From a virus, in IMG/VR virus record IMGVR_UViG_3300045988_166882: a DNA stretch of 64,000 nt; one strand, written 5' to 3'. The notes below the pieces were generated by a model that was not told where the DNA came from, did not search any database, and saw only the letters and a program-made list of their open reading frames with translations. Position numbers and translations under genes: made by a program. Below, piece by piece: positions 3,991 to 44,137 of this stretch (the stretch's first letter is position 1; each line of letters begins with the position of its first letter).

Positions 3991-4542
3991 ATGGACTATA
4001 AAGGACGTATATGCCGCCTGATCGTTGACGAATTGCCTGTTGACGCCTATGGAATGAAGGTGTTGGCGGCGGCGCGTGACCTGTGGGCCAAGCAGGGTAA
4101 GGTGTGTATTTCCACGGGCCGCGCCTTGGGGCGTGAGTTCCCCGTGGTCCAGATTATCGGTGGTGAACCGATGAACTACCCCCAGCGCGTGATCGACGTC
4201 GTCAACGAACTCCGTTCAGCCAACACCAACGTGCGTATCAAACTCTTCACCGGGTTCCCCGACACGGAGGGGTTGTTGAAAGTAGCACCGCTGGTTGACG
4301 CTATTGCCGTGACCTTGGCCAGCCCGGACGACGAACACCACTTCCGCGTTTCGCGCTTGGGGTTTCGCGATTTTGGTAAAACCAGTATGGAGATACGCTA
4401 CAACTCCACCACCGGAGAAGATCCTACAGGCCGCGTATTTCCCCAGTATTGGCGGTTGGTGGATATGGCTCGTGTTGGTGACTATCTGTTGGAATCGACG
4501 GCCTGGGTGATGAAATACGCCAACGGAACGTTATTTAACTAA
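3991..4542 (+). CDS. hypothetical protein (GGEP-containing, radical-SAM-core-like but without a Cys triad)
   Basis: 183-aa ORF; QIIGGEPMNY...KLFTGF resembles the SAM-binding GGEP region, but no CxxxCxxC is present. Confidence 0.55.
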   Translation: MDYKGRICRLIVDELPVDAYGMKVLAAARDLWAKQGKVCISTGRALGREFPVVQIIGGEPMNYPQRVIDVVNELRSANTNVRIKLFTGFPDTEGLLKVAPLVDAIAVTLASPDDEHHFRVSRLGFRDFGKTSMEIRYNSTTGEDPTGRVFPQYWRLVDMARVGDYLLESTAWVMKYANGTLFN

Positions 4543-11557: not shown

Positions 11558-12436
11558 ATGAAGATAGGAATAATATACAAATTAACCATTTTAGCGAAGT
11601 ACAAGTTCTACGGACAACGCCCCTTTTATGTCGGTCAACACTGGGGAATGGAAGACTTTAACTCGTATTTTGGCGGAGGTACAATTTGGAACGATTTTCT
11701 GAATGTCGTCAAAAAGGATTATCCGCTTCACTGGAAAAAGTTTGTTCGGCGTGAAATTTTATATCAAGGCGCGTGTGATCAACGTGCTTTGGACTTTCTC
11801 GAACAGTATTACATAAAGCGCGAAATGGCGCATTATACCGAAGAGAAAGGCGGTTGCAACGTTTTACGTGGTACGGCGAATGCGTTTGGCGCTGGGAGTC
11901 CGATGAAGGACGAAAATTGCAAAAGAAAGCAGGCTGAATCGTTGAAAAAGTATTATGATGAATACGGACATCCGTGTTTAGGTAAAAGGGCAACTCCCGA
12001 ACTGCGTAAACGGTTGAGTGAAGCGCATCGAGGCAAGAAACTATCGCCAGAAACGGTTGAAAAGATACGTAAAGCCAACGCTGGAAAGAAACGAACGCCT
12101 GAATTTTGTGAGTTGATGCGTGAAATGTGGCGTAAACGGAAAGAAGCGGGTTACGTGCCAAAGAATAGAGGGCGAAAAGTCCCCAGGGAAATAGTTGAAA
12201 AACGAGCCGCAGGGGTACGTAAATATTATGCCGAACACGCTTCATCGTTTTTAGGTAAACACCACACCGAGGCTACAAGGTTAAAAATTAGTGAAGCGAA
12301 TAAAGGCAAGAAATTACCGCCTTTTTCAGCTGAAACGAAATTAAAGATGAGCCAATCAGCCAAAAAGGCGTGGGCAATTAGAAAACAACAAAATAATTAC
12401 AATGCGTCGTTCGAATTATCTTGTAATGGACACTGA
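11558..12436 (+). CDS. free-standing GIY-YIG homing endonuclease with NUMOD3 repeats
   Basis: N-terminal GIIYKLT...FYVGQH (GIY-YIG). Repeated G-K-x-x-[ST]-x-E-x-[RK]-x-K-[IML]-S blocks typical of NUMOD3. AT-rich relative to neighbours. The 3' end overlaps the next gene. Confidence 0.8.
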   Translation: MKIGIIYKLTILAKYKFYGQRPFYVGQHWGMEDFNSYFGGGTIWNDFLNVVKKDYPLHWKKFVRREILYQGACDQRALDFLEQYYIKREMAHYTEEKGGCNVLRGTANAFGAGSPMKDENCKRKQAESLKKYYDEYGHPCLGKRATPELRKRLSEAHRGKKLSPETVEKIRKANAGKKRTPEFCELMREMWRKRKEAGYVPKNRGRKVPREIVEKRAAGVRKYYAEHASSFLGKHHTEATRLKISEANKGKKLPPFSAETKLKMSQSAKKAWAIRKQQNNYNASFELSCNGH

Positions 12437-14360: not shown

Positions 14361-17078
14361 ATGATGCCTCAAATTGCGATCCCGTCGTTGACGCACCGTT
14401 TGGCTTGTTTAGACCTCGTTGACGAGATAATCGAGGGTATGGACGAACGCGGCCTTAACGAGATGATGAGTGGCGATACACACGACGTTGACACGATATT
14501 TGATGCTTTGATGATGGACACGTACCGGATTATGTATACTGGCGACGTGTCGATTGATTTTAAGCCCCGCTATGAAGAGAACGTCTCGGCCGTGGTTGAA
14601 GACACCCTGCGGTGTGCCAATTTGACGTATTTCATCACCTCCGTCATCCCGGACTTCCAGCTGTCGTGGCACCACTTGGAGTGGGGTGAGTTAGTCCACA
14701 ACCACAAGAAATTGTGTATCAACGCAGCACGTGACCACGGGAAGTGTGAAGCCGTCGGAACCCCTGTCCGGATGTACGACGGAACTATCAAAAAGGTCGA
14801 AGACGTTGTGGTTGGCGACTTGTTGATGGGCGTCGACTCTAAGCCCCGCCGCGTGGTTGCTACGCGCCGTGGCCACGATTCGATGATGTACCGTATCGAC
14901 CAGTCGCGCGGTGATAGCTACACCGTCAACTCACGCCACATTTGTACGCTGATCGAGAAGGACCGCAACGGTTCCATCGCTACAGCGTCGAAGCGGATAG
15001 TGGATATTGATATTCCGACGCTTTTAAGCAAGACCCCGAACTGGGTGAAGGAACGTTACCGCGGTTTCAAGGTGGCAGTGCAGTACCCCACGCGGCCCGT
15101 GGGGTTGGAACCATATTTTCTTGGGTACTGGTTAGGCGACGGCAACTCCAACAACCAGAAGATCACCACCGCCGACCCTGAAGTGTGTGAGTACTTACAC
15201 TCTTACGCCGAGCGCTTGGGGCTTCACTATGGCCAAAATGGTATGGTAGTGACACTTGGAATTGACGTTCGTGGCCGCGGTAAGCGTAACCCGCTGGAAA
15301 GGATGCTCAAGGGTTACAACCTGCTCTACAATAAGCACATTCCGGAGCAGTACCTCGTCAACAGCGAAGAAGTTCGTCTTCAGGTGTTGGCTGGGTTGAT
15401 CGATTCCGACGGTAACTATTGGCAGGGCGGCTATCACTTCGGTAATACGAACTACCAGTTGGTGTGTGACGTGAAGAACTTGGCCGACAGCCTTGGCTTC
15501 TGTACCCGAATGGGTGGTGGAACGCGGTATTGTAAAGCGTTAGGCCGCGACTATTCGTCGTGGTGCGTGACTATTTCTGGTGAACTGGACCGCATCCCAG
15601 TAAAGATCGCTCGTAAAAAGGTCCAAACCGACTGGGCCGCCAAGACGTCACACAAGGACTGGGGCACTATCGACGGCGTACACCCTACGGTGGTATCGTC
15701 GTTGAAGATCACGCCCGCGGGTGAAGGTGACTACATATCTATCACCACCGACGGCGACCACCGCTTCGTGCTGGGTGACGGTACGGTTACGCACAACTCG
15801 TTCTATTTCTCCAACGCCTACGCCGCGTGGCAATTATACCGCTATAAGAAGCCGTCAACGACCCGTTACTCGAAGCGTCCCACGGTAGCGTCGTCGAATC
15901 GCGGCTTCTTGTTTTCGTTCTCACTCCAGCAGAGCGTTGACCTCTTGGAGATTCTGAAAGGAACCATCGAGGAAAACGAGATTTTGAAGGAACGCCTGCT
16001 ACCCCAGTCCACGGCCAACAACTGGTCGGCTACCAATATCGTGTGCCGTAACGGCGCGCGTTTGACGGGTAAGGGTTTTGGGTCTTCGGTGCGTGGTGCT
16101 CACCCCTACTGGATTATCGTCGATGACGGCCTGAAGGACAACGTCATCTATTCCAGCCTCCAGCGAAATAAGTCTACCGACTATTTCCATTCCGTAATTA
16201 TGAATATGCTCGTACCCGGCGGCCAGATCGTTGTCGTCGGTACGCCGTTCCACGCCGAGGACCTTTACGGCGACCTCAAGACCAAGAACGGTTGGTTCGT
16301 GATCGAGTACCCAGCCATCTTCCCCGACGGGCGAATCCTTTGGCCGCAGCGTTGGTCGTTTAAGGACCTGATGGACAAAAAGGAGACCCAAGGCTCGATC
16401 ATCTTCTCGCGTGAGAACCTTTGCCGCCCGATCACCAACGAATCGTCGATCTTCCCGATGGAAATCCTCACTCGGTCGTTGCTGCGTATGGAGAACTACA
16501 CGTTGGTGGATTCACGCGAAGAGTTCCCCGTTAAGTTCTCCAAGGTAGTCGTGGGCTGTGACTTCGCTATGTCGGCCAACGTCGGTGCTGACTACGCCGT
16601 ATTCAGCGTGTGGGGTATTGACGAACTGACCGACGAGCGTTGGCTGCTTCACCTGTGGCGTGAAAAGGGTGCCAAGTTCTTCGAACAGATGAACGTCCTG
16701 CGCCGTATCAACTCGCGTTTCCGGCCCGACCTGATCGTGATGGAGAACAACACCTTCCAGCAGATATTCGTCGAAACGGCCGACACTGAGGGTATGCCCG
16801 TGATTGGCCACACTACGGGAATTGATAAGTACGACCTGAAGACGGGGTGGCCTCACCTGTCGACGCTATTCGAGCGGGGCAAAATCCACATCCCGGTGGG
16901 TAACGTCTACTCTCAGCAGGTGAAAGACCTCATCTTCCAAGACCTCGGTTCAGTGGCCTTCACCGAAAAAGGCTTGGAAAGCGTGGGCAGCCACGACGAT
17001 ATTTCGTCGTCGTTCTGGTTGGCTGACTTGGCCGCTTCGCGTATGACTACGGGCTTTAAGTTTGATATGTTAGGTTAG
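14361..17078 (+). CDS. terL: terminase large subunit, interrupted by an intein
   Basis: Removing residues 129-479 joins AARDHGK|S into a Walker A motif. The downstream nuclease-type region includes VVGCDFAMS. Lies upstream of the portal and head genes. Confidence 0.85.
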   Translation: MMPQIAIPSLTHRLACLDLVDEIIEGMDERGLNEMMSGDTHDVDTIFDALMMDTYRIMYTGDVSIDFKPRYEENVSAVVEDTLRCANLTYFITSVIPDFQLSWHHLEWGELVHNHKKLCINAARDHGKCEAVGTPVRMYDGTIKKVEDVVVGDLLMGVDSKPRRVVATRRGHDSMMYRIDQSRGDSYTVNSRHICTLIEKDRNGSIATASKRIVDIDIPTLLSKTPNWVKERYRGFKVAVQYPTRPVGLEPYFLGYWLGDGNSNNQKITTADPEVCEYLHSYAERLGLHYGQNGMVVTLGIDVRGRGKRNPLERMLKGYNLLYNKHIPEQYLVNSEEVRLQVLAGLIDSDGNYWQGGYHFGNTNYQLVCDVKNLADSLGFCTRMGGGTRYCKALGRDYSSWCVTISGELDRIPVKIARKKVQTDWAAKTSHKDWGTIDGVHPTVVSSLKITPAGEGDYISITTDGDHRFVLGDGTVTHNSFYFSNAYAAWQLYRYKKPSTTRYSKRPTVASSNRGFLFSFSLQQSVDLLEILKGTIEENEILKERLLPQSTANNWSATNIVCRNGARLTGKGFGSSVRGAHPYWIIVDDGLKDNVIYSSLQRNKSTDYFHSVIMNMLVPGGQIVVVGTPFHAEDLYGDLKTKNGWFVIEYPAIFPDGRILWPQRWSFKDLMDKKETQGSIIFSRENLCRPITNESSIFPMEILTRSLLRMENYTLVDSREEFPVKFSKVVVGCDFAMSANVGADYAVFSVWGIDELTDERWLLHLWREKGAKFFEQMNVLRRINSRFRPDLIVMENNTFQQIFVETADTEGMPVIGHTTGIDKYDLKTGWPHLSTLFERGKIHIPVGNVYSQQVKDLIFQDLGSVAFTEKGLESVGSHDDISSSFWLADLAASRMTTGFKFDMLG
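14745..15797 (+). mobile_element. intein (351 aa) with double LAGLIDADG homing endonuclease
   Basis: Starts with Cys (CEAVGTPVRMYDG) and ends THN followed by Ser+1. LAGLIDADG motifs GYWLGDGNS and LAGLIDSDGNY. Confidence 0.85.
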
Positions 17079-17097: not shown

Positions 17098-17913
17098 ATG
17101 AAAACTCTGATAGCACTATTCACCCGCGGTCGTATCGATCGCCAAAAGACCCTCCAACGGCTCACGCCTCAGGCGCGCCGCCGCGTGACGGTATTCTGTC
17201 ACCCCGGCGAGTTGGCTGCTCACCAGCGTAACTGGGGCGGTGAGGTTGCCGCCATCGAGGAATACAGCACTGCGTGTCGCGGCGTGGGGGACATACGGGA
17301 CTACATCGTTGTAGAGGCCCAAAAGCGGGGATTTGGCGGAGTCTTTTTCTTAGACGATAACGTGTCTTTCTCGCTGCGTTTAGACGATGCCAAGACCCCC
17401 GTGGTGGTAAACAACGACAATTTCACCGTCGAGGCCCAAGAATACATCTATTCGATGATGTTCGACTGGGTGGCGGAGCACTTGGACACCTACGCCGTCG
17501 CCGCGCTTTCGTATCGGCCCTTTAACCGCGACAAGGAACACGACGTACAAATCAACGGGCGATTCTTCTCCATTTGGGGACTGAACATCGCCCAGTACCT
17601 CAGCCAGCCCGTGAGGTTTCGCGATTGGCCTATCAAGGAAGACTTCGCCGTGGCTTGCGGTTTACGCCGCGCCGGGCTGGATAACGTGGTGTCGTACCAG
17701 TATTCGTTCGACAAGATGACCGGAGCCAACGCCGCTGGCGGTTGTTCCGTGTACCGCACTATCGAGAACTCCAACGCCGAGTCACAACGTTTAAGGGAAG
17801 AGTTCCCCGAATATATCACCCTTCGTACCAAGAAATGTACCAATTGGGGGGGTGAAATGAAGGACCGTGAAATGATTGAAGTTAAAATACACTTAAAAGG
17901 TTACAAGAAATGA
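17098..17913 (+). CDS. GT-A-fold glycosyltransferase-like protein
   Basis: VFFLDDNVSF is DxD-like. Collinear with the paralogue at 35286-36089, which carries SKNRP, NRGYSY and VVVMDDDI. Confidence 0.5.
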   Translation: MKTLIALFTRGRIDRQKTLQRLTPQARRRVTVFCHPGELAAHQRNWGGEVAAIEEYSTACRGVGDIRDYIVVEAQKRGFGGVFFLDDNVSFSLRLDDAKTPVVVNNDNFTVEAQEYIYSMMFDWVAEHLDTYAVAALSYRPFNRDKEHDVQINGRFFSIWGLNIAQYLSQPVRFRDWPIKEDFAVACGLRRAGLDNVVSYQYSFDKMTGANAAGGCSVYRTIENSNAESQRLREEFPEYITLRTKKCTNWGGEMKDREMIEVKIHLKGYKK

Positions 17914-18473
17914 TCGTAAAATTCAAGAAAGTACACCCCGACGCCGTACTGCCGCACTACGCTCACCCCGACGGTGAGGACAACGGACTGGACTTGGTTG
18001 CCGCAGCCGTTTTCGAGTCCGACGACTACATCGAGTACGACACAGGTATCGCCGTTGAAATCCCCAAGGGGTACTGCGGCCTGTTGGTCCCGAATTCACG
18101 TTGTTCGAAAAAGGACCTCGTGATGTGTAACGCGCCGGGTATCATCGACCCCGGATATCGCGGTACGATGCGTGCCCGCTACAAGAAGGTTTGGCACCTT
18201 CCGACGCTGCTCCATAAGTTCCTCCGCAGCGTGTGTACGTTGTTCTCGAACGCCTTCGGTGAAATAGCCGGGTTGCGTGCACAGGAAATCAATTTCGACG
18301 TCAAGCAGTTTGAGGTCGGTGAGGTAGTGGCCCAGTTGGTTATCATCCCCGCGCCGCAGATCGAGGTTGAGGAAACTGACACGCTGACGCCTTCGATGCG
18401 TGACACCGCGGGGTTCGGTTCGACGGTAAAAGCGGTTCCCGAGAGCGAACGTGTTCAAAATGCCGAAAAATAG
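17910..18473 (+). CDS. dut: dUTPase (trimeric family) with internal insertion
   Basis: Motifs NGLDL, PNSR, GIIDPGYRG, VVAQLVI and RDTAGFGST. About 34 extra residues between motifs III and IV. Confidence 0.85.
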   Translation: MIVKFKKVHPDAVLPHYAHPDGEDNGLDLVAAAVFESDDYIEYDTGIAVEIPKGYCGLLVPNSRCSKKDLVMCNAPGIIDPGYRGTMRARYKKVWHLPTLLHKFLRSVCTLFSNAFGEIAGLRAQEINFDVKQFEVGEVVAQLVIIPAPQIEVEETDTLTPSMRDTAGFGSTVKAVPESERVQNAEK

Positions 18474-18479
18474 AACGCC

Positions 18480-18659
18480 ATGGATCAACAACAATTACTG
18501 GCTCTTTTACTCGGAATAGGGTTCTTCTTCGTGATGCCGATTGCTCTTTTCCTGATCGGGTTGTCGAACGCTTCCTCAGATCGCCGTTTACGGCGTTATC
18601 GCGAAGAGTACAAACGAAAGTACGGATTTTATCCACCCGACGAATATTAACAAAATGAA
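18480..18659 (+). CDS. small membrane protein (59 aa)
   Basis: Hand-translated as MDQQQLLALLLGIGFFFVMPIALFLIGL.... Overlaps the next start. Below the ORF-track cut-off. Confidence 0.4.
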
Positions 18660-19242
18660 AACGATCCTCCAACACAACCCCGCCAAACAGGACAACGTCG
18701 AAGCCATGGCCGACGCGCTGGTAGAGTCGATGCGCTTCGCTGACCCTACGGTTGATTATCCTGATATCTCCAAGGCCAAAGCCGACGACGGCGTTCCGGC
18801 CGAGTGGTTCCACAAGGCATACGCCGGCATTACCGGTACGTCGGAACTCACGGCCATTCTTCAGTACACGCAGCAGCGGATGATTTTTGACCAGATTGGA
18901 GAAACGTTCCTCGGTATCGCCCTCACCGAGATGAAGCACTACGACCGATTAGGCGACTTCATCGACCATATCGGGGGCAGCGTATCGCGGCCCGTATTTT
19001 CGGCAGCCAAAGTGGACATTACGACCGAAAGCGCGGCCGAAGCCGTCCAGATCAACATCCGCGCCGAGCAGGACACCATCGCCGAGTACGAGAAACTCAT
19101 TCAGCGTATTCAGGCCAACAACCCTACGCCGACCGTTACATCCACGCTGGCGGTTCAACTTATCAACAAAATCATCGCCGACGAGCGCGTCCACGTGCGG
19201 TTGTTGAGTGAATTGGCGATTATGATCGATGAAACGTTATGA
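18655..19242 (+). CDS. ferritin-like di-metal protein (Mn-catalase/CotJC-like)
   Basis: ELTAILQYTQQ, plus two E-x-x-H motifs (LTEMKHY and ADERVHV). Confidence 0.5.
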   Translation: MKTILQHNPAKQDNVEAMADALVESMRFADPTVDYPDISKAKADDGVPAEWFHKAYAGITGTSELTAILQYTQQRMIFDQIGETFLGIALTEMKHYDRLGDFIDHIGGSVSRPVFSAAKVDITTESAAEAVQINIRAEQDTIAEYEKLIQRIQANNPTPTVTSTLAVQLINKIIADERVHVRLLSELAIMIDETL

Positions 19243-22356: not shown

Positions 22357-22395
22357 GGCCCCGATTCGTAAGCGTTTCGGGGCCAACGTTTTTGA
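22357..22395 (+). terminator. rho-independent terminator
   Basis: GGCCCCG/CGGGGCC stem followed by AACGTTTTT. Confidence 0.5.
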
Positions 22396-22399
22396 GCGT

Positions 22400-22714
22400 A
22401 TGGACCGATGGAGATATTTCAAAATAGGTGATATCGTCACCGACCCCGAAGTGTGGGGAAAGACGATGTTCGTAATACGCACGCTGCACGGTAACGACTA
22501 CTGCCCGCTGATCAGTGGCGAGTCCCTAAAACCGATCCGCGGTCGCCGTATAAGGGTAAACCTCGGCGTGGGGGAGACGCGTCTTGTAAACGCTCCTAAA
22601 CGTCCGTTGATGAAGATTCCCGACGGTACGTTGGTGCGGTTAGCTGGAAAGAGCGTTGAAGCGCGGCGCGAATTGTTAATTAGAAGCTATCGTAAACAAT
22701 ATGGCAACGTTTGA
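22400..22714 (+). CDS. hypothetical protein
   Basis: 104-aa ORF. Confidence 0.6.
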   Translation: MDRWRYFKIGDIVTDPEVWGKTMFVIRTLHGNDYCPLISGESLKPIRGRRIRVNLGVGETRLVNAPKRPLMKIPDGTLVRLAGKSVEARRELLIRSYRKQYGNV

Positions 22715-23711
22715 CCATTATGCTTGGGCTGATAAACTACCCGACGCGTCGCTCGACGTGAGCGCAGAACACCACACGGAGTTCTTCCGGACGATGTTCG
22801 AGCGTCAGATGATATGGAAACGGCGGTTCTTAGATCAGGCTCCGCGCCCGTGGACTGAAGACCCCATACTACGCGACTACAAGTTTACCAACGTCTACCG
22901 CGAACTGGACCGAAACTCCCAGTGGCAAATACGTAATATCCTACTCGATGACGGGTTGACGCTGGCGAATCTGGTGTGGAAGATGATGGTGTTCCGCTAT
23001 TTCAACAATCCCGCCACGTTCGAATACGCTCGCGAAAAGTACGGTTGGGGAGCCGGCATCCCGGATCACGACCAATACGACGAAGACCTCTTTGCCGAGA
23101 TGATAACGTCGTACCGCGCTACGGGTAACAATCCCTATACTACGGCGTATCTGATCAATTCGATGGCCACGCCCGGTAAGCCGCGCGACTACTGCTACAC
23201 GCACTTGGTCGTCCCGACGCTTCACCGTCGGTTAGGCGAACTGATGCGGACGGTGTTGACGGCTGACACTCCGGAGCAGATCATCAAGTTCCTTCAGAGC
23301 CTTCCTTCATCGGCGACGTTTATCGCTCACGAATTCTACCAAGACTTCACCTACATACCGCGTTACACCTATCGCCGTTTTATGCGTTTCACCCAAGACG
23401 ACTACACCAACGTCGGTCCCGGCGCGTCCATAGGGCTGCGGCTGGTGTTTCCGTCGTTGAAGTGCCAAATTGACGGTATCTACCGTTTGCGTGACGAAGC
23501 CCGCGAGGCTCTTCAGCAGTGTGGAGACTTTCCATACCTACATTGGGATCGCGCAGGGCGTTGCTACCGGGTGTCGCGCTGCGGCGACGTGACGCTTCAT
23601 CAAGTTGAGATGTGGCTGTGTGAGTACCAGAAGTACTGGAAGATGAAGATCGGCGAAGGGAAGCAACGCTCAATCTTCGAACCGCGAACTCGTAAAATTG
23701 TAGGCCAATGA
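22701..23711 (+). CDS. alpha-glutamyl/putrescinyl-thymine pyrophosphorylase (aGPT-Pplase)-like protein
   Basis: ERQMIWKRRF..PRPWTEDPILRDYKFTNVYRELDRNSQW matches my recollection of the conserved N-terminal block of this family. Not verified by search. Confidence 0.5.
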   Translation: MATFDHYAWADKLPDASLDVSAEHHTEFFRTMFERQMIWKRRFLDQAPRPWTEDPILRDYKFTNVYRELDRNSQWQIRNILLDDGLTLANLVWKMMVFRYFNNPATFEYAREKYGWGAGIPDHDQYDEDLFAEMITSYRATGNNPYTTAYLINSMATPGKPRDYCYTHLVVPTLHRRLGELMRTVLTADTPEQIIKFLQSLPSSATFIAHEFYQDFTYIPRYTYRRFMRFTQDDYTNVGPGASIGLRLVFPSLKCQIDGIYRLRDEAREALQQCGDFPYLHWDRAGRCYRVSRCGDVTLHQVEMWLCEYQKYWKMKIGEGKQRSIFEPRTRKIVGQ

Positions 23712-24031
23712 TCACGTTCCACACCCCGTTGGAAACGGGCGAGTTTATGGGCATCGACTTTCAGGTGATGGCCGATGACCTTTCAACCAGTGCCGCACGA
23801 TTAGTAGTCGTCGGCACTTTCATATCACCCCTTACCGTTGAAGAGAAATCACACCTCCAAGACCTCGTTCACTTAATCCGCCGCGACGGTGAGTGGAACG
23901 GTTCGTATGACGACCAGACGGACTACTACTCATGGAACGGTCATCAGGTAGCAGTTTGGGGCGATATCATCCATCAGGCTATCATCATACGCAAGACGGC
24001 CCGCAACGACTTTTTGAATCTGTTGAGTTGA
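23708..24031 (+). CDS. hypothetical protein
   Basis: 107-aa ORF with an ATGA overlap. Confidence 0.6.
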   Translation: MITFHTPLETGEFMGIDFQVMADDLSTSAARLVVVGTFISPLTVEEKSHLQDLVHLIRRDGEWNGSYDDQTDYYSWNGHQVAVWGDIIHQAIIIRKTARNDFLNLLS

Positions 24032-32726: not shown

Positions 32727-33655
32727 TTTTCAACAATCGCCAAATAGACGACATGGTCGGCATTCTCCGGCGTTGGCAGTACCTGTTTATTGCCAAGCAC
32801 GTCGGATTAGACTTTCTGACCCAGTCGGAGATCGACATCTTGGTGGCGTCAGGGGTCAACGTCGATAAGTACAAGAACACGAAAGGTATCATCGAACACG
32901 CTTTTCTGTTCGGTATCTTGGCTGAGGCACTCGGCGATCAACGCGCCAAGAAGATGAATTACAAGCAGTTTCTCCAGTACCTCAAATCAGGAAACTTCGT
33001 TCCGCTCACCGAGCAGGAGGAGAACGCGCTGAATTATCTCAAGAACCGCGCCTACACCGACATCACGTCGCTCGGAAACCGTATCGTTACCGGTACGCGC
33101 AACGCCATCCTCAAATCTAACTTTCGTCAGCAAGCCGCCATACGCCAGCAGATCAAAGATAAGGCCATGCAAGCCGTCCAACTGCGTAAGGGGGCGCGGT
33201 ATATAGCCAGCGAATTGGGGAACCTTACCCAAGACTGGGGACGCGATTGGCTGCGTATTGCGTACTACCTTCTGCACGAAGCCTACAACGTGGGCCGCTC
33301 GGAAAGTATCTACAAGCAGTATGGCCCCGACGCTATGGTGTATTTCGACGTATACCCCGGCGCGTGTGCCAAATGCCGCGAGTTGTACTTGGAGGACCCC
33401 GAAGACCCTAATTCGAAGCCAAAACTGTTCCGCCTCGGAGACCTTATCGCCAACGGTAACAATATCGGCCGTAAGGTGGCTGAGTGGCTTCCTACGATCG
33501 ACCCGACGCACCCCTACTGCCGCTGTACTATCAACCACGTACCGCCGGGGTACGAGTGGGACCCTGAAACACGCGCTTTCACCAAGCCTGTCAAGCGTCA
33601 GTTCAAGAACCCAAAGTTAAGGAACGTGAAACTCAACATTAAAGTAACAAAATAA
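32723..33655 (+). CDS. MuF-like minor head (head morphogenesis) protein
   Basis: CAKCRELY...IDPTHPYCRCT matches the SPP1 gp7/Mu F signature (HPxCRC). The ATG at 32723 overlaps the upstream stop. Confidence 0.65.
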   Translation: MIFNNRQIDDMVGILRRWQYLFIAKHVGLDFLTQSEIDILVASGVNVDKYKNTKGIIEHAFLFGILAEALGDQRAKKMNYKQFLQYLKSGNFVPLTEQEENALNYLKNRAYTDITSLGNRIVTGTRNAILKSNFRQQAAIRQQIKDKAMQAVQLRKGARYIASELGNLTQDWGRDWLRIAYYLLHEAYNVGRSESIYKQYGPDAMVYFDVYPGACAKCRELYLEDPEDPNSKPKLFRLGDLIANGNNIGRKVAEWLPTIDPTHPYCRCTINHVPPGYEWDPETRAFTKPVKRQFKNPKLRNVKLNIKVTK

Positions 33656-34614
33656 TGAAAAACAAAATCGTACAAGACCCCCCGTTCACCATGCAGATCG
33701 AGCCGACCGAGGGTTGTAACTTGGGGTGTTCGTTCTGCGGCCTTCACGGCATGCGTGAAAAGGGTACCAAACCGTGGAATTTCATGACCGTCGAAACCGC
33801 CGAGCGTATCGCTTCTGAGGTAGCGCGTGTGGGCTGGAATTGCAAGTTCGTGTTCGCTATGCACGGCGAACCCACGCTCAACCCGGCGTTCATCGACATC
33901 GTGGCCACGTTCCGCAAGCACTTGCCGAAGGCCGTGTTCCATATGTACAGCAACGGCTACGCCATGAACCACGCCGACGACACCGAGGCTTACCTCGACC
34001 GCCTGTTCGGCGCTGGCATGAACGACATCTTGGTGGACTGCTACACCGCCAACGGCGACTGGAATTTCGTCGAGAAGATCGATGTCGATAAGTACAACGT
34101 CGTCACGCTGGAACCGGGCGTTCCGTACTACTACCCCAAGCAGGGCCGTCGTATCTGCTTGCTGCCGCCCATCGCCCAGGACGATACCAACAAGATGACG
34201 CGGCGTCTGGCCAACCACTGCGGCGCGGCGTTCCCGCTCGACGATTCGTTCAACAACAAGCGTTGTACTTTCCCGTTCCGGGAACTGGACGTGCGCTGGA
34301 ACGGTCAGGTCTGCTTGTGTTGTGACGACTTCCGCGGTGAGTACCCCATCGCCAACATCCACGACATGCCCATCGAAGACCTTTGGAACCACCCGCGCTT
34401 CCACGCCGCTCGCGTGATGCTGTACAATAACGACCGCCGCTTCCGCCCGTGTCAGGGGTGTACGCACGTCAGCGTTCGCGTTGGCTTCCTGCCTGACAAG
34501 AAGGGTAAGCAGACGCTGCCGGCTATCACGCCCGAAATCCGCCGTATGGCTGAAGAGGTATCGAAGGACGGCCCCTGCGCCGAGAAGATTTACCGACGGC
34601 CATGGGAAAAATAA
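33655..34614 (+). CDS. radical SAM enzyme with SPASM/twitch-like C-terminal Cys cluster
   Basis: CNLGCSFC (CX3CX2C), HGEPTLNP, and C-terminal CTFPF..GQVCLCCDDF..PCQGC. Confidence 0.8.
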   Translation: MKNKIVQDPPFTMQIEPTEGCNLGCSFCGLHGMREKGTKPWNFMTVETAERIASEVARVGWNCKFVFAMHGEPTLNPAFIDIVATFRKHLPKAVFHMYSNGYAMNHADDTEAYLDRLFGAGMNDILVDCYTANGDWNFVEKIDVDKYNVVTLEPGVPYYYPKQGRRICLLPPIAQDDTNKMTRRLANHCGAAFPLDDSFNNKRCTFPFRELDVRWNGQVCLCCDDFRGEYPIANIHDMPIEDLWNHPRFHAARVMLYNNDRRFRPCQGCTHVSVRVGFLPDKKGKQTLPAITPEIRRMAEEVSKDGPCAEKIYRRPWEK

Positions 34615-35285: not shown

Positions 35286-36089
35286 ATGGATTGTCAATTC
35301 TTCGTCGTGTCCAAGAACCGCCCCAAGTGCGTCACGACCAAATTGTTGGAAAAGGGCGGCGTCGACTACCACATCGTGGTCGAAAAGGAAGACGTTGAAA
35401 AGTACGTCGAAGCAGGTCACGACCGTAAGCGGTTGATCGTACTACCAGCGTCGAACCGCGGCTACAGCTACGTGGTCAATTTCTGCAAGAACACCTACCT
35501 CCGCGCCGGGCGGCCTGTGGTGGTGATGGATGACGATATCGCCAACTTCTTCTACTCGATCGACGGCGAAGCCAAATGCGGCCTTTCGCTGAAGACCCCA
35601 GAAGAACTGTCAGAGTTCTTTGAAGAGTTCAACCGCGAAGTCATGGAGACCGACTTCGAGTACGGCACCATGGGCAAGAGCGCCTTCGACTGGAGTTGTA
35701 CCGACGTCAGCCCGCGTTTCAAGTACGGCGGTATCCCTCACCTCATCGTGTTCAAAGGGCTGCGGACGCTGGAGTTGGACTTTGACGAAAAGTTGGAGTT
35801 GAAGTGCGACATCGACTATTCGTTGAAGTGTATGTATCTGGGCATCGTCTACGCACGCTTCGTACGCTTCCTTCTCCAGAGTAAGATGAACAAGGAGGCA
35901 AATCAGGGCGGCGGCCTTCAAGACGTGTACGAGCGTCAGGAACGTGTTCAGCGTGCTCACAACATCATATTGAAGCGGTGGCCGCTGAACGCCCGTGTCG
36001 ATGACAAGAAGAAGCCCATCAACGGCGTACCGGAGTTACGTATTGTGTACAAGAAATTTGATATTGACTTTGATGCGGTGGAGGTGTAG
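35286..36089 (+). CDS. GT-A-fold glycosyltransferase-like protein (paralogue of 17098-17913)
   Basis: FVVSKNRP, NRGYSYVVNF, VVVMDDDIANF (DxD). Confidence 0.55.
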   Translation: MDCQFFVVSKNRPKCVTTKLLEKGGVDYHIVVEKEDVEKYVEAGHDRKRLIVLPASNRGYSYVVNFCKNTYLRAGRPVVVMDDDIANFFYSIDGEAKCGLSLKTPEELSEFFEEFNREVMETDFEYGTMGKSAFDWSCTDVSPRFKYGGIPHLIVFKGLRTLELDFDEKLELKCDIDYSLKCMYLGIVYARFVRFLLQSKMNKEANQGGGLQDVYERQERVQRAHNIILKRWPLNARVDDKKKPINGVPELRIVYKKFDIDFDAVEV

Positions 36090-36124: not shown

Positions 36125-37873
36125 ATGTCAGACAATATCCAAAAAGCAAAGCACAACGTCGGCGATCATCATCCTACGCAACCGTGGGTGTGGACGGAGT
36201 ACAAGCCCGGAAAGTTCAACTGGCGTGTCGACAAGAACGCCAAACCCAAGGACAACGCCGATACCGGTAAACAATCGACAGGCGGCGGCGCCACGAGCCT
36301 CGAAGAGTGGGCTAAGCGTACCACCGACGACAACCTGCTCAAAGTAGTAAACAACCCCAAAGGTAACGCGCAGTTGCGGCAGATTGCCTACAACGAACTG
36401 AAGTCACGTAACGCCGATCTTTTGCAGGTCGATACAAGCGGTACGTTGGCCACGCTGTTGAAGATGACCACCCAGCAGGACCCCGTGGCACCCACCAACG
36501 CCGCGGCTAAAGTAGACATCAACGACGGCGAGGGCGGAAACGACGACGGTGAAATCGTTGAAGACTGGTTCCTCAACCCTGACGACCCGCGCATTCAGAA
36601 GAAGTTCAACAAACTCCAAAGCCGTCAGGACCGTATTGCGTACGACCGCTTCGTCTACGCGATGAAGAAGAAGGACCCTGACTACCAGCCGCCTGTTGAG
36701 GTGATGTACGACCTGAACCGCCAGTATCTGGAGTTCTTGGACAACAAGGAGCAGCGGTTCATGATCTCGGCTGGTGGTGCCGGTATCGGTAAATCGTACG
36801 GTTTCAAGAAAATCGCCGAACTGCTCAACAAGCGTCCGTTTGACGCCGAAACCGACGCGCCGGGCGATGGCGACTATGACTACGTTGAACTCGGTGACAT
36901 CAACTCCAAGAAGCAGCTGCTGGGCGTACTCAAAGCCCACAACGGCAAGATTCTTCTGTTCGACGATACCGACTCCGTTATCACCCGCGCCGACTTGGCT
37001 TCCATCATGAAGAAGGCCACTTCCGCTTCAGGTAAGCGCGTGGTCGGAGACCCGGACGACGTCAAGTCGAATTTCGTATTCACGGGCCGTATCATCATCA
37101 TGACCAACAAGGACCTCGTGAACCTCGCCAAGAACGAGGATGCCAAGGCTATCATTTCGCGCGCTACGCTGACGTCGGAAGTCTACCTGACCGTTGACGA
37201 GACGATCGAGGTTCTGAAGGACCGCTACGAAGACATGGACGTTCCCCAGCAGCCGCACCTCGATGACCCCGAAGAGGACAAGCAGGAACGTAAAGAACTG
37301 TTTGACCTTATTGTCAAGAACAAGAATAAGATCGACCCTGCCAAGTTTACCACCCGTACCTTTGGCACCATCTTGTCGGAGAAGCGTTCTGCCGACCGCG
37401 CTAACAAGCGCGCCAAGCAGGGCGGTCAGTGGACAAACCTGATCGGCAGCCAGCAAAAGGAGTGGGAACGCGCCGCCGTTCGTGCACTGACGAAGGGACT
37501 CGCGTACGAGGCCATTCAACCCGTCGAAACGTCGGATGATATCAGTAAGGCCGAAGCCCTGCTCAGCGACGCAGAATCGCTCGAAAAGGCCGATTTTACC
37601 GAAGAGCAGCGTGAGAAACTTGCCAAGAAGAAGGAGGCCCTCCCTGACGGCTCGTTCCCGATTCGTAACAAGTCCGACCTGAAGAACGCCATCCGTCTTG
37701 CTGGTAACGCCAAAAACCCCGAACGCGCTCGGCGCTGGATCAAACGCCGCGCCAAGTCGCTCGGTGCTGAGGATATGATCCCCGACACGTGGAAGGCTCA
37801 GACTACTGACCTCGGTTCGCTGCCGGCTGACGACATGTCGATCGAAAAGGCTGAAACCCTCTTGTTCGGATAA
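36125..37873 (+). CDS. P-loop (AAA-like) ATPase domain protein (582 aa)
   Basis: Walker A GGAGIGKS, Walker B ILLFDDTD, then FTGRIIIMTN. The C-terminus carries FPIRNKSDLKNAIRLAG. Confidence 0.7.
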   Translation: MSDNIQKAKHNVGDHHPTQPWVWTEYKPGKFNWRVDKNAKPKDNADTGKQSTGGGATSLEEWAKRTTDDNLLKVVNNPKGNAQLRQIAYNELKSRNADLLQVDTSGTLATLLKMTTQQDPVAPTNAAAKVDINDGEGGNDDGEIVEDWFLNPDDPRIQKKFNKLQSRQDRIAYDRFVYAMKKKDPDYQPPVEVMYDLNRQYLEFLDNKEQRFMISAGGAGIGKSYGFKKIAELLNKRPFDAETDAPGDGDYDYVELGDINSKKQLLGVLKAHNGKILLFDDTDSVITRADLASIMKKATSASGKRVVGDPDDVKSNFVFTGRIIIMTNKDLVNLAKNEDAKAIISRATLTSEVYLTVDETIEVLKDRYEDMDVPQQPHLDDPEEDKQERKELFDLIVKNKNKIDPAKFTTRTFGTILSEKRSADRANKRAKQGGQWTNLIGSQQKEWERAAVRALTKGLAYEAIQPVETSDDISKAEALLSDAESLEKADFTEEQREKLAKKKEALPDGSFPIRNKSDLKNAIRLAGNAKNPERARRWIKRRAKSLGAEDMIPDTWKAQTTDLGSLPADDMSIEKAETLLFG

Positions 37874-41217: not shown

Positions 41218-42963
41218 ATGCCGAGTTTTGTAAATATGGCGTCGCTTACCAAGTTGACGTCGATTACGGGAAACGAAGAGTTTCAAGTCTCAGCTACCAA
41301 CAAGATTAGTTCAAGAGACATAGCTTCATTGGCGCTTACACAGCAATTACATGGTTTATCGGAGGTCACTATTGGATCACCAAAAATATCAAGTACCTCG
41401 TTGTTGCTGTCTGCCATAGCAGCACTTTACAGGCTTAGTAGCGACAATGGTAAAATACTTCCAATTTCCAACGGTATTGATAAGTTCGGAAATGTCGTTT
41501 TTTCCGGTACTAATGCAGTCGGGATATTATTCGATGTGAAGGCATCCAAATACTTTACCCGATCAGGAGTGACTGCCACTGCAATCTTCAACAGCGCGCA
41601 ATGGATTTCTTGGTTGCAAGACGGAGAGGCTCATGAGATGGACGGTGGTTCCGGTGTTGCCGATCCGATTCAGATTCACGACTTCGCCGAGGTCAGTGCT
41701 ATCGACAACTGGCCGACGCCTAAAGACGGTCTGATTATTCCGTTTGTTACGGATTCAGGCGTTCTGAATAAACCGGGGAACGAATCCGAGTACGTGGGCA
41801 TCATCATCTGCGAAGTAGATACCCAAAATACGGGCCGCGCCGAAGTAATTGCTTACGGATGTGGAACTGGTGCGTGCTATGTAGGATTACTGGATTATGC
41901 TTCGGTCAGTATCGAATGGATGGTAAACAAAATGTCGGTCGCTGGCAAAAAACTTAGCGCGTTTACCGGTACTGCAATCGGAAACTATATTCAGAGCATG
42001 GGAAATGCTGGTGACTTATTTCCGTTCGTCACTGTAAACGCCAACAAGACTACCGCTAACCAGTTTCCGGCCAACGGTGCATGGAGTGGATTCGTCACCA
42101 TTGGTGACGGGGGTGGTGTAAACATTATTGCTTTCAAAAGCACCACTGATCCGAATGCCGAGGTTTATGTCGGTCGTTGTAGTGGCGGCACTACCCAATG
42201 GACCCTCGTCGGTGGTGGTAGTGGTGGTGGTGGTGGACTGGACGTGATTAATGTTCCTATGGGCGGTGATATAGGCTCCATCATTGCTGGTGCAAACTGG
42301 AAACAAACGGGAATGGAGGGAGAGATGAAAGCCGTTTTTGTCTTGGACCCTGCAAGTGTTGTTGGAGACTATTTTCCGAATCTTAAAAACGCTCAGACAC
42401 TCGCAGGATTTGCTCAATGTGTCTATGACGGTTCAGACTATCAGTATTTCATAACCACCCTATTCCCGTATACAGACACATTACGCAATCTCTCAAAAGA
42501 GTATGGGCGAATTCTTTCAGAAACTAACGGGGATGTTATCGACTATGAAGAATATCCGTATTGTGGAGAGGCCCCTATTCCCGGTTATTCTACTTTAGTG
42601 AACGTATGGCGTGGTCCTTTAGTGACAGATAGTACCGGGGTTATAAATTTTAACGCTGAGATACCTACATCTTCAAAGATATTGGTTGTCGCAAAACTGC
42701 GTAGCTCAACTGCTACAACAGCCAATGTCGTAGCGAATATCCCTATAACTTTTGTTGATGTAAATTCGACAGGCCAAGGAATTATACTCGACTACACAAA
42801 CCTACTCATAGGTAAAAACGGTGTTCCCGGTTCCATAAGGCTCATTTGTTCGTCTGTTATTACTGGAGCTACGGGTGTACAAGGTATGAATTTCGTGTTA
42901 CAAGTGAGCAACGTATCAGATGTGTCTAATATTCTCGAAATAGCGATGTATAGCAATAGATAG
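41218..42963 (+). CDS. tail fibre / receptor-binding protein (581 aa)
   Basis: Low-GC ORF, Gly-run hinge (GGGSGGGGG), Ser/Thr/Gly/Asn/Val-rich (beta-type composition). The C-terminal third is homologous to the inverted ORF at 43448-44230. Confidence 0.65.
   Translation: MPSFVNMASLTKLTSITGNEEFQVSATNKISSRDIASLALTQQLHGLSEVTIGSPKISSTSLLLSAIAALYRLSSDNGKILPISNGIDKFGNVVFSGTNAVGILFDVKASKYFTRSGVTATAIFNSAQWISWLQDGEAHEMDGGSGVADPIQIHDFAEVSAIDNWPTPKDGLIIPFVTDSGVLNKPGNESEYVGIIICEVDTQNTGRAEVIAYGCGTGACYVGLLDYASVSIEWMVNKMSVAGKKLSAFTGTAIGNYIQSMGNAGDLFPFVTVNANKTTANQFPANGAWSGFVTIGDGGGVNIIAFKSTTDPNAEVYVGRCSGGTTQWTLVGGGSGGGGGLDVINVPMGGDIGSIIAGANWKQTGMEGEMKAVFVLDPASVVGDYFPNLKNAQTLAGFAQCVYDGSDYQYFITTLFPYTDTLRNLSKEYGRILSETNGDVIDYEEYPYCGEAPIPGYSTLVNVWRGPLVTDSTGVINFNAEIPTSSKILVVAKLRSSTATTANVVANIPITFVDVNSTGQGIILDYTNLLIGKNGVPGSIRLICSSVITGATGVQGMNFVLQVSNVSDVSNILEIAMYSNR
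42193..42204 (+). repeat. left copy of the inverted 12-mer at the fibre constant/variable junction
   Basis: ACCCAATGGACC, read as ACC CAA TGG ACC (TQWT). Confidence 0.5.
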
Positions 42964-43005
42964 ATTAACAGTGGTGCATCTTCGGGTGGAATAGCTCCCG
43001 GTACA

Positions 43006-43413
43006 GTGATATTCAACGACGAATTTTCGTTTGATGGCTACACCAGCGCAAATCCCGGTCAGTTGTCTCTCTTACAACCTATTCCGTTAGGGTCCATAGT
43101 GACTTTCATAGGATCGTATTATTTTGGACTTCCCGCCGAAGAAATTTTACTTTCACCCGAAAGCCATACATGGTCATTTACAGTAGCTTTACCCACTGGA
43201 GCTTCCAGTGTCGCACACTATCTGAAAGACATGTTAGTCGTGCAAAATCCCGATACAAATTTGGTAGTAGACAGACAATCCGCGATGTACAAAATAGATG
43301 CCAAAAATCTCGTTAATGGCAAAATCAGTACAATAGATATGTACGCTACTGGAGTTCTGTTGTCTGATATGTATTTAACGATTGAGCAAATTATCTATGT
43401 TGCGCAGGTATAG
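43006..43413 (+). CDS. hypothetical protein in frame with the fibre gene across a single TAG
   Basis: Only a GTG start is available. Same frame as 41218-42963 and open continuously from the fibre TAG at 42961-42963. Confidence 0.5.
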   Translation: MIFNDEFSFDGYTSANPGQLSLLQPIPLGSIVTFIGSYYFGLPAEEILLSPESHTWSFTVALPTGASSVAHYLKDMLVVQNPDTNLVVDRQSAMYKIDAKNLVNGKISTIDMYATGVLLSDMYLTIEQIIYVAQV

Positions 43414-43418
43414 AATAA

Positions 43419-43443
43419 ATCCCCCTCCTATTAAGAGGGGGAT
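43419..43443. terminator. bidirectional rho-independent terminator
   Basis: ATCCCCCTC/GAGGGGGAT 9-bp stem flanked by AATAAA and TTTTCTT. Lies between convergent ORFs. Confidence 0.7.
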
Positions 43444-43447
43444 TTTC

Positions 43448-44137
43448 TTAGATATTGGCATACACACCTTTAATCCGCAAAATATCAGATGGATTACCTA
43501 AATTGTTTGATGTTACAACTACTTGTAATCCCTGAATCCCTTTCGCTCCTGTCACAACAGAAGCAACATTCAAACGGATTTGCCCGATATTAGTTCCGGA
43601 CGCAATACTTCGGGTGTTCAAATCCATAAGTGTTGCTGCTTGTACGGGATTAAAGAACGTTACAGGAATAGCCACTGATCGAATGTCAGCATTGGGACCA
43701 GCCGATGATCTGAGTTCGGCGTCAATGAACATTGCCGTACTGTTGATGACCTCATAGTTAAAATTCACAATCATCAAACTCCCTGCTGATAATGCCAAGT
43801 CATATTGATTGGCTATTTTGGTAAATCCGGGGATAGGGGATGCAAAGGTACCAATGGGGGTCAACATGGTCTCCATTACGTCACCGCTATTGTTCATCAG
43901 CACTTCTCCCCGGTAAGCGATCCGGCCTGATGTTTCCCATATTGTGAAGGTTAGTCCAATGTGTTGATAATCTCCGCCATCATACACACGCTGGGCATAT
44001 CCAACAATAGTAGATTCAGCCTGCGGAAAAGAAGCGTTTTTGATCTGAGGTAATTGATCGTATATATCGGATGACGGCTCTATGAATACAGGCACTATTT
44101 CGCCATCCTTATCCCACGAGTGATTTTCAACAATCAT
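43448..44137 (-). CDS. alternative tail-fibre C-terminal cassette (frame open to 44230 without a start codon)
   Basis: The only convincing minus-strand ORF in the window. Collinear with residues ~326-581 of the + strand fibre. The homology continues 31 codons upstream of its first ATG. Confidence 0.6.
   Translation of the reverse strand: MIVENHSWDKDGEIVPVFIEPSSDIYDQLPQIKNASFPQAESTIVGYAQRVYDGGDYQHIGLTFTIWETSGRIAYRGEVLMNNSGDVMETMLTPIGTFASPIPGFTKIANQYDLALSAGSLMIVNFNYEVINSTAMFIDAELRSSAGPNADIRSVAIPVTFFNPVQAATLMDLNTRSIASGTNIGQIRLNVASVVTGAKGIQGLQVVVTSNNLGNPSDILRIKGVYANI

Follow-up and report, generated by a model that had tools for sequence, protein, structure and literature searches.

We analysed a 64,000-nucleotide stretch of viral DNA, IMG/VR virus record IMGVR_UViG_3300045988_166882 (hereafter the window, meaning the whole of that stretch), with a focus on the gene at 22701..23711 on the plus strand (hereafter the target), which encodes a clade-1 member of the alpha-glutamyl/putrescinyl-thymine pyrophosphorylase (aGPT-Pplase) family. 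The phage genome of about 100 kb to which the window belongs also encodes a homologue of thymidylate synthase (TS) of the deoxyuridine monophosphate (dUMP) hydroxymethylase type and two predicted glycosyltransferases, and no kinase for 5-hydroxymethyl-deoxyuridine (5-hmdU) DNA and no amino-acid:DNA transferase (ADDT) were found in it. With moderate confidence we favour the interpretation that the target is a cysteine-dependent enzyme whose substrate is 5-hmdU in DNA, and that the phage, judging from its gene content, probably has its thymine replaced or decorated.

Thymidine hypermodifications protect phage DNA from restriction, and the enzymes that make them serve as DNA-labelling tools. To our knowledge, activities are known only for the kinase, the transferase of clade 2 and some of the tailoring enzymes. 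Clade 1 comprises more than 3,000 clusters, occurs with a hydroxymethylase in every system examined and keeps a Cys/Glu signature. Carriers without kinase and transferase, namely the phage group described here, PhiJL001 and phiRSL1, two of which are cultured, separate the role of clade 1 from the known pathway, and the combination of clade 1 with a hydroxymethylase and sugar transferases, but without kinase or ADDT, points to a different route of DNA modification. The gene set predicts DNA containing glycosylated 5-hydroxymethyluracil (5-hmU) in a phage group that occurs in many metagenome samples, which, if true, would affect sequencing, restriction and defence-system studies of the communities sampled; a clade-1 enzyme turning 5-hmdU into thymidine would, if real, fill a step that Lee et al. 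2018 call unknown.

The target is a divergent clade-1 aGPT-Pplase

The target open reading frame (ORF) starts with ATG and encodes 336 amino acids. Its product matches the Pfam profile PF18723 (HMUDK_hel, '5-hmdU DNA kinase, helical domain') with 170.4 bits against a curated cut-off of 25 bits (E 6.9e-50; residues 25-320, profile positions 4-279 of 281), and PHROG 2396 at E 6.6e-47; an NCBIfam search gave no match and a PDB sequence search no meaningful one. A first-pass annotation of the window, made from the sequence alone, had singled out an N-terminal hallmark block in the product of the gene at 22701-23711 and tentatively assigned the gene to the aGPT-Pplase family. The ORF and the block, residues 32-75 (MFERQMIWKRRFLDQAPRPWTEDPILRDYKFTNVYRELDRNSQW), are both real, and the assignment holds for the broad family, through clade 1 and PF18723; it does not extend to the clade-2 ADDT profile PF18724, for which the Pfam scan returned nothing at E<=1, whereas the control PaMx11 gp46, a characterised and crystallised glycine:DNA transferase, matched at 1.6e-27. 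Two further controls, Bacillus phage Nachito UXR28902 (annotated 'aGPT-pyrophosphorylase clade 1') and PaMx11 gp50, matched PF18723 at 1.7e-49 and 5.6e-41, respectively. Because the controls split in this way, we equate PF18723 with the old aGPT-Pplase clade 1 and PF18724 with the old clade 2. Structure matches of the target in BFVD bear both names, HMUDK_hel and Pplase1.

The name aGPT-Pplase clade 1 was reportedly already in use for this family by Iyer and colleagues in 2013. It is also found in Lee et al. 2018, according to whom SP10 gp186 joins a kinase at its N-terminus to an aG/PT-PPlase at its C-terminus; this fusion of a kinase to a clade-1 domain accounts for the Pfam name HMUDK_hel. 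Searches with tblastn found relatives of the target in 451 phage records, the best listed matches being 24-29% identical, and these include known thymidine-hypermodifying groups (ViI-like, M6/PaMx11-like and SP10-like) as well as PhiJL001. An exhaustive representative search gave 3,056 family clusters at 50% identity (E<=1e-3), and the best 150 representatives are mostly stand-alone proteins of about 300-350 amino acids, with a few of 480-528 amino acids that carry N-terminal extensions. The target is the sole clade-1 copy that a clade-1 hidden Markov model (HMM) detects in the ~100 kb genome. By these comparisons, it is a divergent new member of a known, functionally uncharacterised family.

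A probable hydroxymethylase outside the window, without kinase or ADDT

Contigs as long as 86-101 kb carry a protein identical to the target, and contigs of 100.8-102.2 kb carry the window's baseplate protein; the latter occurs in 544 index blocks, and the phage is thus present in many metagenome samples. The exact proteins of the first two ORFs of the window are not on record. Starting from the window's 3' end, we walked outwards across three overlapping loci, all from a single IMG/VR contig whose identity to the window is 96-97% where they overlap. Since this walk nearly closes on the window start, stopping about 362 bp short of it, the genome is about 100 kb long and has been essentially fully surveyed, apart from that 362-bp gap. 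The phage is a myovirus of about 100 kb, with a portal protein about 41% identical to the portals of a Chryseobacterium phage (40.7%) and of SPO1/SP8-type Herelleviridae. Outside the window it encodes a DnaE-type polymerase, DnaB, RecA, UvrD and DEAD helicases, SbcCD-like proteins and a YfbR-like HD 5'-deoxynucleotidase. Megablast comparison of 24 kb of window sequence with phage genomes gave no match, and ten early-region ORFs had no match in PHROGs.

The closest cultured relative by portal, Chryseobacterium phage MA9V-3 (PV245944.1; 40.7%), was considered as a proxy and rejected, having neither clade 1 nor TET-associated glycosyltransferases; it carries a tmRNA gene, and its folE and queE imply a 7-deazaguanine modification. 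A separate observation concerns contig IMGVR_UViG_3300029572_000001 (199 kb; loci L011/L020 and L031/L050), which holds two genome copies about 99.8 kb apart that are unequal in identity, at 100% and 91% for a helicase fragment and at 100% and 79% for the TS homologue, probably two related phages joined in assembly.

The TS homologue, of 405 amino acids, lies at L011:16707-17924, about 17 kb past the 3' end of the window and about 40 kb from the target. Its identity is 40.5% with the PaMx11 dUMP hydroxymethylase gp51 (E 1.5e-41), 37-39% with the enzymes of Nachito and M6, and 27% with E. coli ThyA. All the dUMP-binding and catalytic residues checked are kept, namely R21, E58, Y94, C146, R166, S167, D169, N177, H207 and Y209 (E. 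coli numbering), and the Asn at position 177 points to a uracil rather than a cytosine substrate. Together with the hydroxymethylases of hypermodifying phages, the homologue shares the loss of W80, the changes W83F, H147N and F176T/A, and a replaced folate-closing C-terminus. In established TS enzymology, such residues protect the methylene intermediate and hold the folate in place for hydride transfer. Loss of these features would fit the addition of water, that is, hydroxymethylation.

In the window itself no TS homologue and no 5-hmdU DNA kinase is present, as the first-pass annotation had stated and as Pfam, Walker-A and HMM scans confirm. That annotation had also pointed to the rest of the genome as the place to look for a TS-like hydroxymethylase and a P-loop kinase: the first was found there, which strengthens its inference of modified thymidine, and the second was not. 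Across the ~100 kb surveyed, no 5-hmdU DNA kinase (PF18748/PF18747), ADDT or TET/JBP was detected by Pfam scans of essentially all ORFs, BLAST with PaMx11 gp45-53, a Walker-A scan and local HMMs. The local ADDT and kinase HMMs were run over every six-frame ORF of at least 40 amino acids, and the ADDT model gave nothing at E<=10. We also considered a kinase hidden among the Walker-A ORFs and rejected it, all of these being of helicase or RecA type apart from chance matches. Pfam scans of the ~100 kb genome likewise revealed no tailoring enzyme dependent on pyridoxal phosphate or flavin adenine dinucleotide. As the hydroxymethylase alone is present, the canonical route from hydroxymethylase through 5-hmdU DNA kinase (5-HMUDK) and ADDT to tailoring is not encoded.

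An all-helical fold with a conserved Cys/Glu motif

An AlphaFold2 model of the target, built from a 32-sequence alignment, has a predicted local distance difference test score (pLDDT) of 90.4 and a predicted template-modelling score (pTM) of 0.87, and is almost all-helical, with 15 helices and one small hairpin. Among the predicted viral structures of BFVD, the model superposes on SP10 gp186 (TMq 0.73), phiRSL1 B2ZYD4 (TMq 0.71), PhiW-14 C9DG43 (HMUDK_hel; TMq 0.62) and on proteins annotated 'Pplase1', the template-modelling (TM) scores for clade 1 ranging from 0.6 to 0.73. A BFVD model annotated 'Amino acid:DNA transferase' matches more weakly (E 0.012, prob 1.0, TM 0.44), and the top PDB fold match, also weak, is PaMx11 gp46, 8Z2M (E 0.29, probability 0.77, TM 0.38/0.43). 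Helix-hairpin-helix (HhH) glycosylases, endonuclease III and AGOG, are among the weak PDB fold matches (probability <=0.07, TM <=0.3). We regard the target as a stand-alone, all-helical and probably HhH-glycosylase-like paralogue of the amino-acid:DNA transferases.

In an alignment of 54 diverse clade-1 members (24-65% identity), R35, F62, N64, R67, D70, F207, G241, G245, C307 and K311 are invariant and all kept in the target, while P50, W51, R99, A149, G239, P240, E303, E308 and Y312 are at least 90% conserved. The hallmark block holds five of the ten invariant residues (R35, F62, N64, R67 and D70) together with P50 and W51, and includes the motif K61-F-T-N-V-Y-R-E-L-D70. G239-P-G241 forms an HhH-like GPG hairpin, and the putative catalytic motif is E303-M-W-L-C307-E308-x-x-K311-Y312. 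This C-terminal motif, HQVEMWLCEYQKY (HQVE303MWLC307EYQKY), parallels REVEHTLCEFDKY in PaMx11 gp50 and QEVETILCKWK in gp46, in which the corresponding residues are E243 and C247.

In the crystal structure of gp46 with DNA, thymine O4 is in contact with a metal bound to E243 and T244, the flipped base is clamped between W146 and C247, the proposed C6 nucleophile, and the glycine donor is bound by K150, D24 and W146 (PMC11472151). An hhalign comparison of the diverse clade-1 and ADDT profiles gave a weak alignment (E 0.011, probability 3.9%, 178 columns) that pairs E303 with E243, C307 with C247, F207 with W146 and E211 with K150 (target/gp46), the N-terminal Asp motif of ADDT (gp46 Asp24) lying outside the aligned region. 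This profile-profile alignment was obtained solely with the diverse 54-sequence clade-1 profile; two comparisons of a shallow target alignment, with gp46 and with the ADDT alignment, failed. The equivalence of the Cys and Glu residues is drawn from a short motif, this weak alignment and the published superfamily classification, and it suggests that the target keeps the base-activating core without the donor-binding lysine, Glu211 aligning with Lys150.

Glycosyltransferases and other possibly modification-related genes

The window encodes further genes with a possible bearing on nucleotide modification. The dUTPase, the two GT-A-like genes and the radical S-adenosylmethionine (SAM) enzyme listed in the first-pass annotation are all borne out by Pfam:

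17098..17913, plus strand: TAGT1, TET-associated GT-A glycosyltransferase (PF20691, E 2.4e-14)
17910..18473, plus strand: dUTPase (Pfam dUTPase, E 2.4e-11), its start overlapping the end of TAGT1
33655..34614, plus strand: radical SAM and SPASM enzyme (Radical_SAM 1.3e-15, SPASM 2.6e-12), cluster motif CNLGCSFC
35286..36089, plus strand: TAGT2, TET-associated GT-A glycosyltransferase (PF20691, E 1.3e-13)

TAGT1 is 24.5% identical to the glucosyl transferase gp22 of PhiJL001 (E 4e-14) and has DDN at the expected DxD position, whereas TAGT2 and PhiJL001 gp22 have a DDD metal-binding motif; TAGT1 is a candidate 5-hmdU DNA glycosyltransferase. No similarity between TAGT1 and TAGT2 was detectable by BLAST. 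Directly downstream of TAGT2 lies a gene for a 582-amino-acid P-loop protein (36125..37873, plus strand; GGAGIGKS, weak AAA_30 match), helicase-like and not kinase-like.

The radical SAM enzyme may conceivably take part in DNA modification, although nothing found here speaks for it; its reading as an isomerase of the M6 gp53 type was rejected, as it has no similarity to the radical SAM protein M6 gp53. In the related contig L095 a Methyltransf_21 gene occupies the same slot, so the position seems to be a variable, accessory one. In each of the three contexts that we inspected, a gene for a ferritin/rubrerythrin-like di-iron protein lies close to the dUTPase gene (18655..19242, plus strand; detected in 41 of 48 related loci), and its product might serve nucleotide metabolism as a redox or oxygenase partner.

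Comparison with known modification systems

The same gene set recurs elsewhere. PhiJL001 is a relative of PaMx11, with gp19 51.5% identical to gp50 and gp24 46% to gp51, and encodes clade-1 gp19, the TAGT-like glucosyltransferase gp22, hydroxymethylase gp24 and HD protein gp25; it has no homologue of PaMx11 gp46-49, and no Walker-A motif was found in the gene cluster examined (gp11-26). In the jumbo phage phiRSL1, clade-1 ORF231 (HMM E 1e-49) directly adjoins the TS-like ORF230, within a cluster (ORF229-238; NC_010811.2 160956-179756) that also encodes three TAGT-like glycosyltransferases, NDP-sugar enzymes, an APS kinase and a galactose-3-O-sulfotransferase, and none of whose ORFs matches the ADDT or HMUDK-kinase HMMs. 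This content suggests that phiRSL1, a cultured jumbo phage, has 5-hmU DNA bearing a sulfated glycan. In its ORF231, Ser takes the place of the Glu that lies four residues ahead of the conserved Cys.

According to a pelagiphage study, TS and aG/PT-PPlase1 are partner genes, accompanied in some cases by a 5'-deoxynucleotidase and a glucosyltransferase, and in M6-like phages TS is always found with aG/PT-PPlase1. Judged by gene content, the hydroxymethylase and clade 1 are the constant pair in every system examined, and the kinase/ADDT and glycosyltransferase modules as alternative additions to it. The gene cluster of PhiJL001 and the target genome, both without kinase, indicate that fusion to or neighbourhood with a kinase is not universal in PF18723.

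The target belongs to the same Pfam family as PaMx11 gp50, M6 gp55, Nachito UXR28902, the C-terminal domain of SP10 gp186, PhiW-14 C9DG43, phiRSL1 ORF231 and PhiJL001 gp19, and shares with them the hallmark motifs, the invariant Cys and a partnership with a TS homologue of the dUMP-hydroxymethylase type. It is, however, only 24-29% identical to any clade-1 member from a cultured phage, and unlike in the known clade-1 loci its hydroxymethylase is encoded about 40 kb away, the target adjoining the portal gene region instead. PaMx11, M6, Nachito and SP10 differ from the target genome, which has no 5-HMUDK and no clade-2 partner; in its kinase-less set it resembles PhiJL001 and phiRSL1.

With the ADDT enzymes (PaMx11 gp46/PUGT 8Z2M/8Z2N, M6 gp51 and ViI gp247) the target appears to have in common an all-helical two-bundle architecture, the E-x3-C motif and an aromatic base clamp, and 5-hmdU-derived bases in DNA are the actual or presumed substrates of both. 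It differs from them in giving no profile match, in a TM score of only ~0.4, in the exchange of Lys150 for Glu211 and in its N-terminal motif (KFTNVYRELDR, against GDLDPIY); moreover, the phosphorylated substrate of ADDT cannot be made from the gene set of the target genome.

We also compared hydroxymethyl-pyrimidine glycosylation systems, namely the T-even dCMP hydroxymethylase with alpha/beta-glucosyltransferases, the trypanosome JBP and JGT of base J, and the phage ThyS and GT-A pathways predicted by Pyle et al. The likeness lies in the TS-family hydroxymethylase and in GT-A TAGTs structurally related to the base-J glucosyltransferase, whereas here the acceptor would be 5-hmU and not 5-hydroxymethylcytosine (Asn at N177), there is no dioxygenase, and a conserved clade-1 enzyme is added. 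The combination of hydroxymethylase, clade 1 and TAGT without kinase or ADDT is a variant of the known thymidine-modification pathways, and such gene sets have been glimpsed, without analysis, in pelagiphage annotations and in ThyS and GT-A surveys.

Gene neighbourhood and conservation within the phage group

The features around the target are as follows:

22357..22393, plus strand: GC-rich hairpin with T-run, between orf225 and orf104 (-22.6 kcal/mol, z -2.9, RNA fold)
22400..22714, plus strand: orf104, 104 amino acids, no Pfam match, its 3' end overlapping the target start by 14 nt
22701..23711, plus strand: the target, clade-1 aGPT-Pplase/HMUDK_hel (ORF, PF18723, AlphaFold2 model)
23708..24031, plus strand: orf107, its start overlapping the target stop (ATGA)
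from 24069: portal gene, 38 nt after orf107

The hairpin is likely to be an intrinsic terminator. A simple terminator scan did not report it, which we attribute to its 12-nt loop exceeding the 3-8 nt limit of the scan. With a terminator at this position, a single (late) transcription unit would comprise orf104, the target, orf107 and the portal gene, so that the target appears to be transcribed with late structural genes; such timing would fit an action on freshly replicated DNA ahead of packaging.

A search for related loci with a diverse alignment returned this phage group alone, and the counts that follow describe conservation within the group. For two distant homologues the contigs were too short to give an informative gene context. 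The target, orf104, orf225, a 5'-3' exonuclease and the portal gene are kept in all 48 related loci with full flanks, orf104 being always upstream of the target (48/48). By comparison, orf107 is present in 18/18 close relatives and was not detected in the 30 more distant ones, and TAGT1 is found in 16 of the 18 close relatives and 3 of the 30 distant ones. In one relative the target is followed by a 193-amino-acid ORF that has no P-loop and is not kinase-like.

Proposed mechanism and alternative explanations

In the pathway that we envisage, the TS-like hydroxymethylase would make 5-hydroxymethyl-dUMP, and the dUTPase, by supplying dUMP to it and excluding dUTP from DNA, would act together with the HD 5'-deoxynucleotidase to bias the nucleotide pool such that 5-hmdU is incorporated instead of T. 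After replication, the clade-1 protein would flip 5-hmdU out of the duplex; the invariant Cys307 would attack C6, with Glu303 on O4 and Phe207 stacking on the base, so that the exocyclic-methylene chemistry would be that of clade 2, with a different co-substrate and no phosphate leaving group. The two TAGTs would probably put sugars on 5-hmdU in this lineage. The data show the family membership, the fold, the conserved Cys/Glu motif, the gene content of the genome and the recurrence of the gene set in other phages; beyond these we infer three things, namely that 5-hmdU is present in the DNA, that the target is catalytic and that it acts on DNA. The leading candidates for its product are a kinase-independent group transfer and the reductive conversion of left-over 5-hmdU to thymine. 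More broadly, and only tentatively, clade 1 as a whole may be an autonomous, kinase-independent, Cys-dependent 5-hmdU-DNA enzyme that forms a minimal two-gene module with the dUMP hydroxymethylase and either makes thymidine from 5-hmdU after replication or is a new kind of group transferase; in this lineage the TAGTs would then put sugars on the 5-hmdU that is left, giving base-J-like phage DNA.

Several points weigh against a Cys-dependent enzyme acting on 5-hmdU. An unphosphorylated hydroxyl is a poor leaving group, and our literature search found no activity or functional assignment for clade 1. The homology to clade 2 is weak, as seen in the hhalign probability of 3.9%, the TM scores of 0.38-0.43 to 8Z2M and the two failed shallower comparisons, and Glu211 stands opposite Lys150, which binds the donor in gp46. 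The sequence of the hydroxymethylase comes from a relative with 96-97% identity to the window and not from the contig of the window itself. Because TAGTs accompany the target in only 3 of 30 distant group members, glycosylation cannot be its conserved purpose. Finally, in a reconstitution of the M6 pathway the 315 u glycinyl-thymidine product was formed with gp55, gp52 and gp53 excluded, and gp55, which our tblastn mapping identifies as the clade-1 paralogue, is therefore dispensable for transfer in vitro.

This last result also bears on the view implied by the first-pass annotation, that the target is a canonical aGPT-Pplase or amino-acid:DNA transferase, exchanging the (pyro)phosphate of phosphorylated 5-hmdU for an amine or amino acid. 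That activity has been shown for clade 2 alone (M6 gp51, ViI gp247, PaMx11 gp46 and PhiW-14 gp109), and with no ADDT profile match, Glu211 in place of the donor-binding Lys150, no 5-HMUDK in ~100 kb to supply the substrate and no requirement for M6 gp55 in the transfer reaction, we consider it improbable here, even though the target belongs to the same superfamily by literature classification, shares the E-x3-C motif with ADDT and comes from a genome that encodes a hydroxymethylase, and even though SP10, with a clade-1 domain alone (gp186C) and no clade 2 detected, makes glutamyl-thymine (Lee et al. 2018 Table 3), which would in principle allow clade 1 to be a transferase. It is likewise unlikely that the target is without catalytic activity and is a helical module for binding DNA, which would read 5-hmdU or, as an adaptor, flip the base out and offer it to another enzyme, a kinase elsewhere and glycosyltransferases here. 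The Pfam name HMUDK_hel implies such a role, and the fusion to a kinase in SP10 gp186, the few fused architectures of 480-528 amino acids, the dispensability of M6 gp55 in vitro and the HhH-like GPG hairpin would suit it; an adaptor would not, however, be expected to keep a strictly invariant Cys, in the proven nucleophile motif of clade 2, in members that share as little as 24% identity, the majority of the 150 best representatives stand alone at about 300-350 amino acids, and the target is retained in 27 of 30 distant members without a TAGT nearby as well as in a kinase-less genome. Least credible of all is a DNA glycosylase excising a base, for example from host thymine DNA or at uracil or 5-hmU sites: an HhH DNA-glycosylase-like fold was predicted for the family in the literature, and endonuclease III and AGOG are among its PDB fold matches, but those matches are insignificant, the invariant residues follow the ADDT pattern and not HhH-GPD/Asp, and the strict linkage to a hydroxymethylase points to biosynthesis.

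Within our preferred interpretation of a Cys-dependent enzyme on 5-hmdU, one sub-case is that the target 'finishes' thymine, residual 5-hmdU being converted to dT through a Cys307 methylene intermediate and a hydride; we regard this as possible but rather doubtful. PhiW-14 and SP10 convert 5-hmdU in DNA in situ to T or to a hypermodified base, and 'how 5-hmdU is converted to thymidine ... is still unknown' (both Lee et al. 2018). The methylene intermediate is reducible, given that M6 gp51 with borohydride turns 5-phosphomethyl-deoxyuridine (5-PmdU) into dT. Moreover, clade 1 accompanies the hydroxymethylase with either module, kinase/ADDT (PaMx11, M6, Nachito) or glycosyltransferases (PhiJL001, phiRSL1, this phage), and the apparent late unit with the portal gene would suit a step before packaging. 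Against this, a Pfam scan found a single domain in the target and no NAD(P)H, flavin or folate cofactor-binding motif, and the T-forming step of PhiW-14 is reported to proceed via a pyrophosphate ester and thus to require the kinase that is absent here.

Other features of the window

A few further observations concern genes apart from the modification set. A 183-amino-acid ORF at 3991..4542 (plus strand) has a sub-threshold match to Fer4_12 (4Fe-4S single-cluster; E 0.0065) and none in PHROGs. The island at 41218..44137 is low in GC (~0.44, against 0.53 overall) and is probably a recent acquisition; its three ORFs, of 581 and 135 amino acids on the plus strand and 229 amino acids on the minus strand, have a GC content at third codon positions (GC3) of 0.40-0.43 and no Pfam match. 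An ORF with a NUMOD3 motif at 11558..12436 (plus strand) is homing-endonuclease-like, and its GC3 of 0.41, against ~0.65 in its neighbours, suggests a mobile insertion. The large terminase subunit (14361..17078, plus strand; 905 amino acids) contains an intein with Hint and LAGLIDADG homing-endonuclease domains, the terminase of a relative without the insert being 556 amino acids long.

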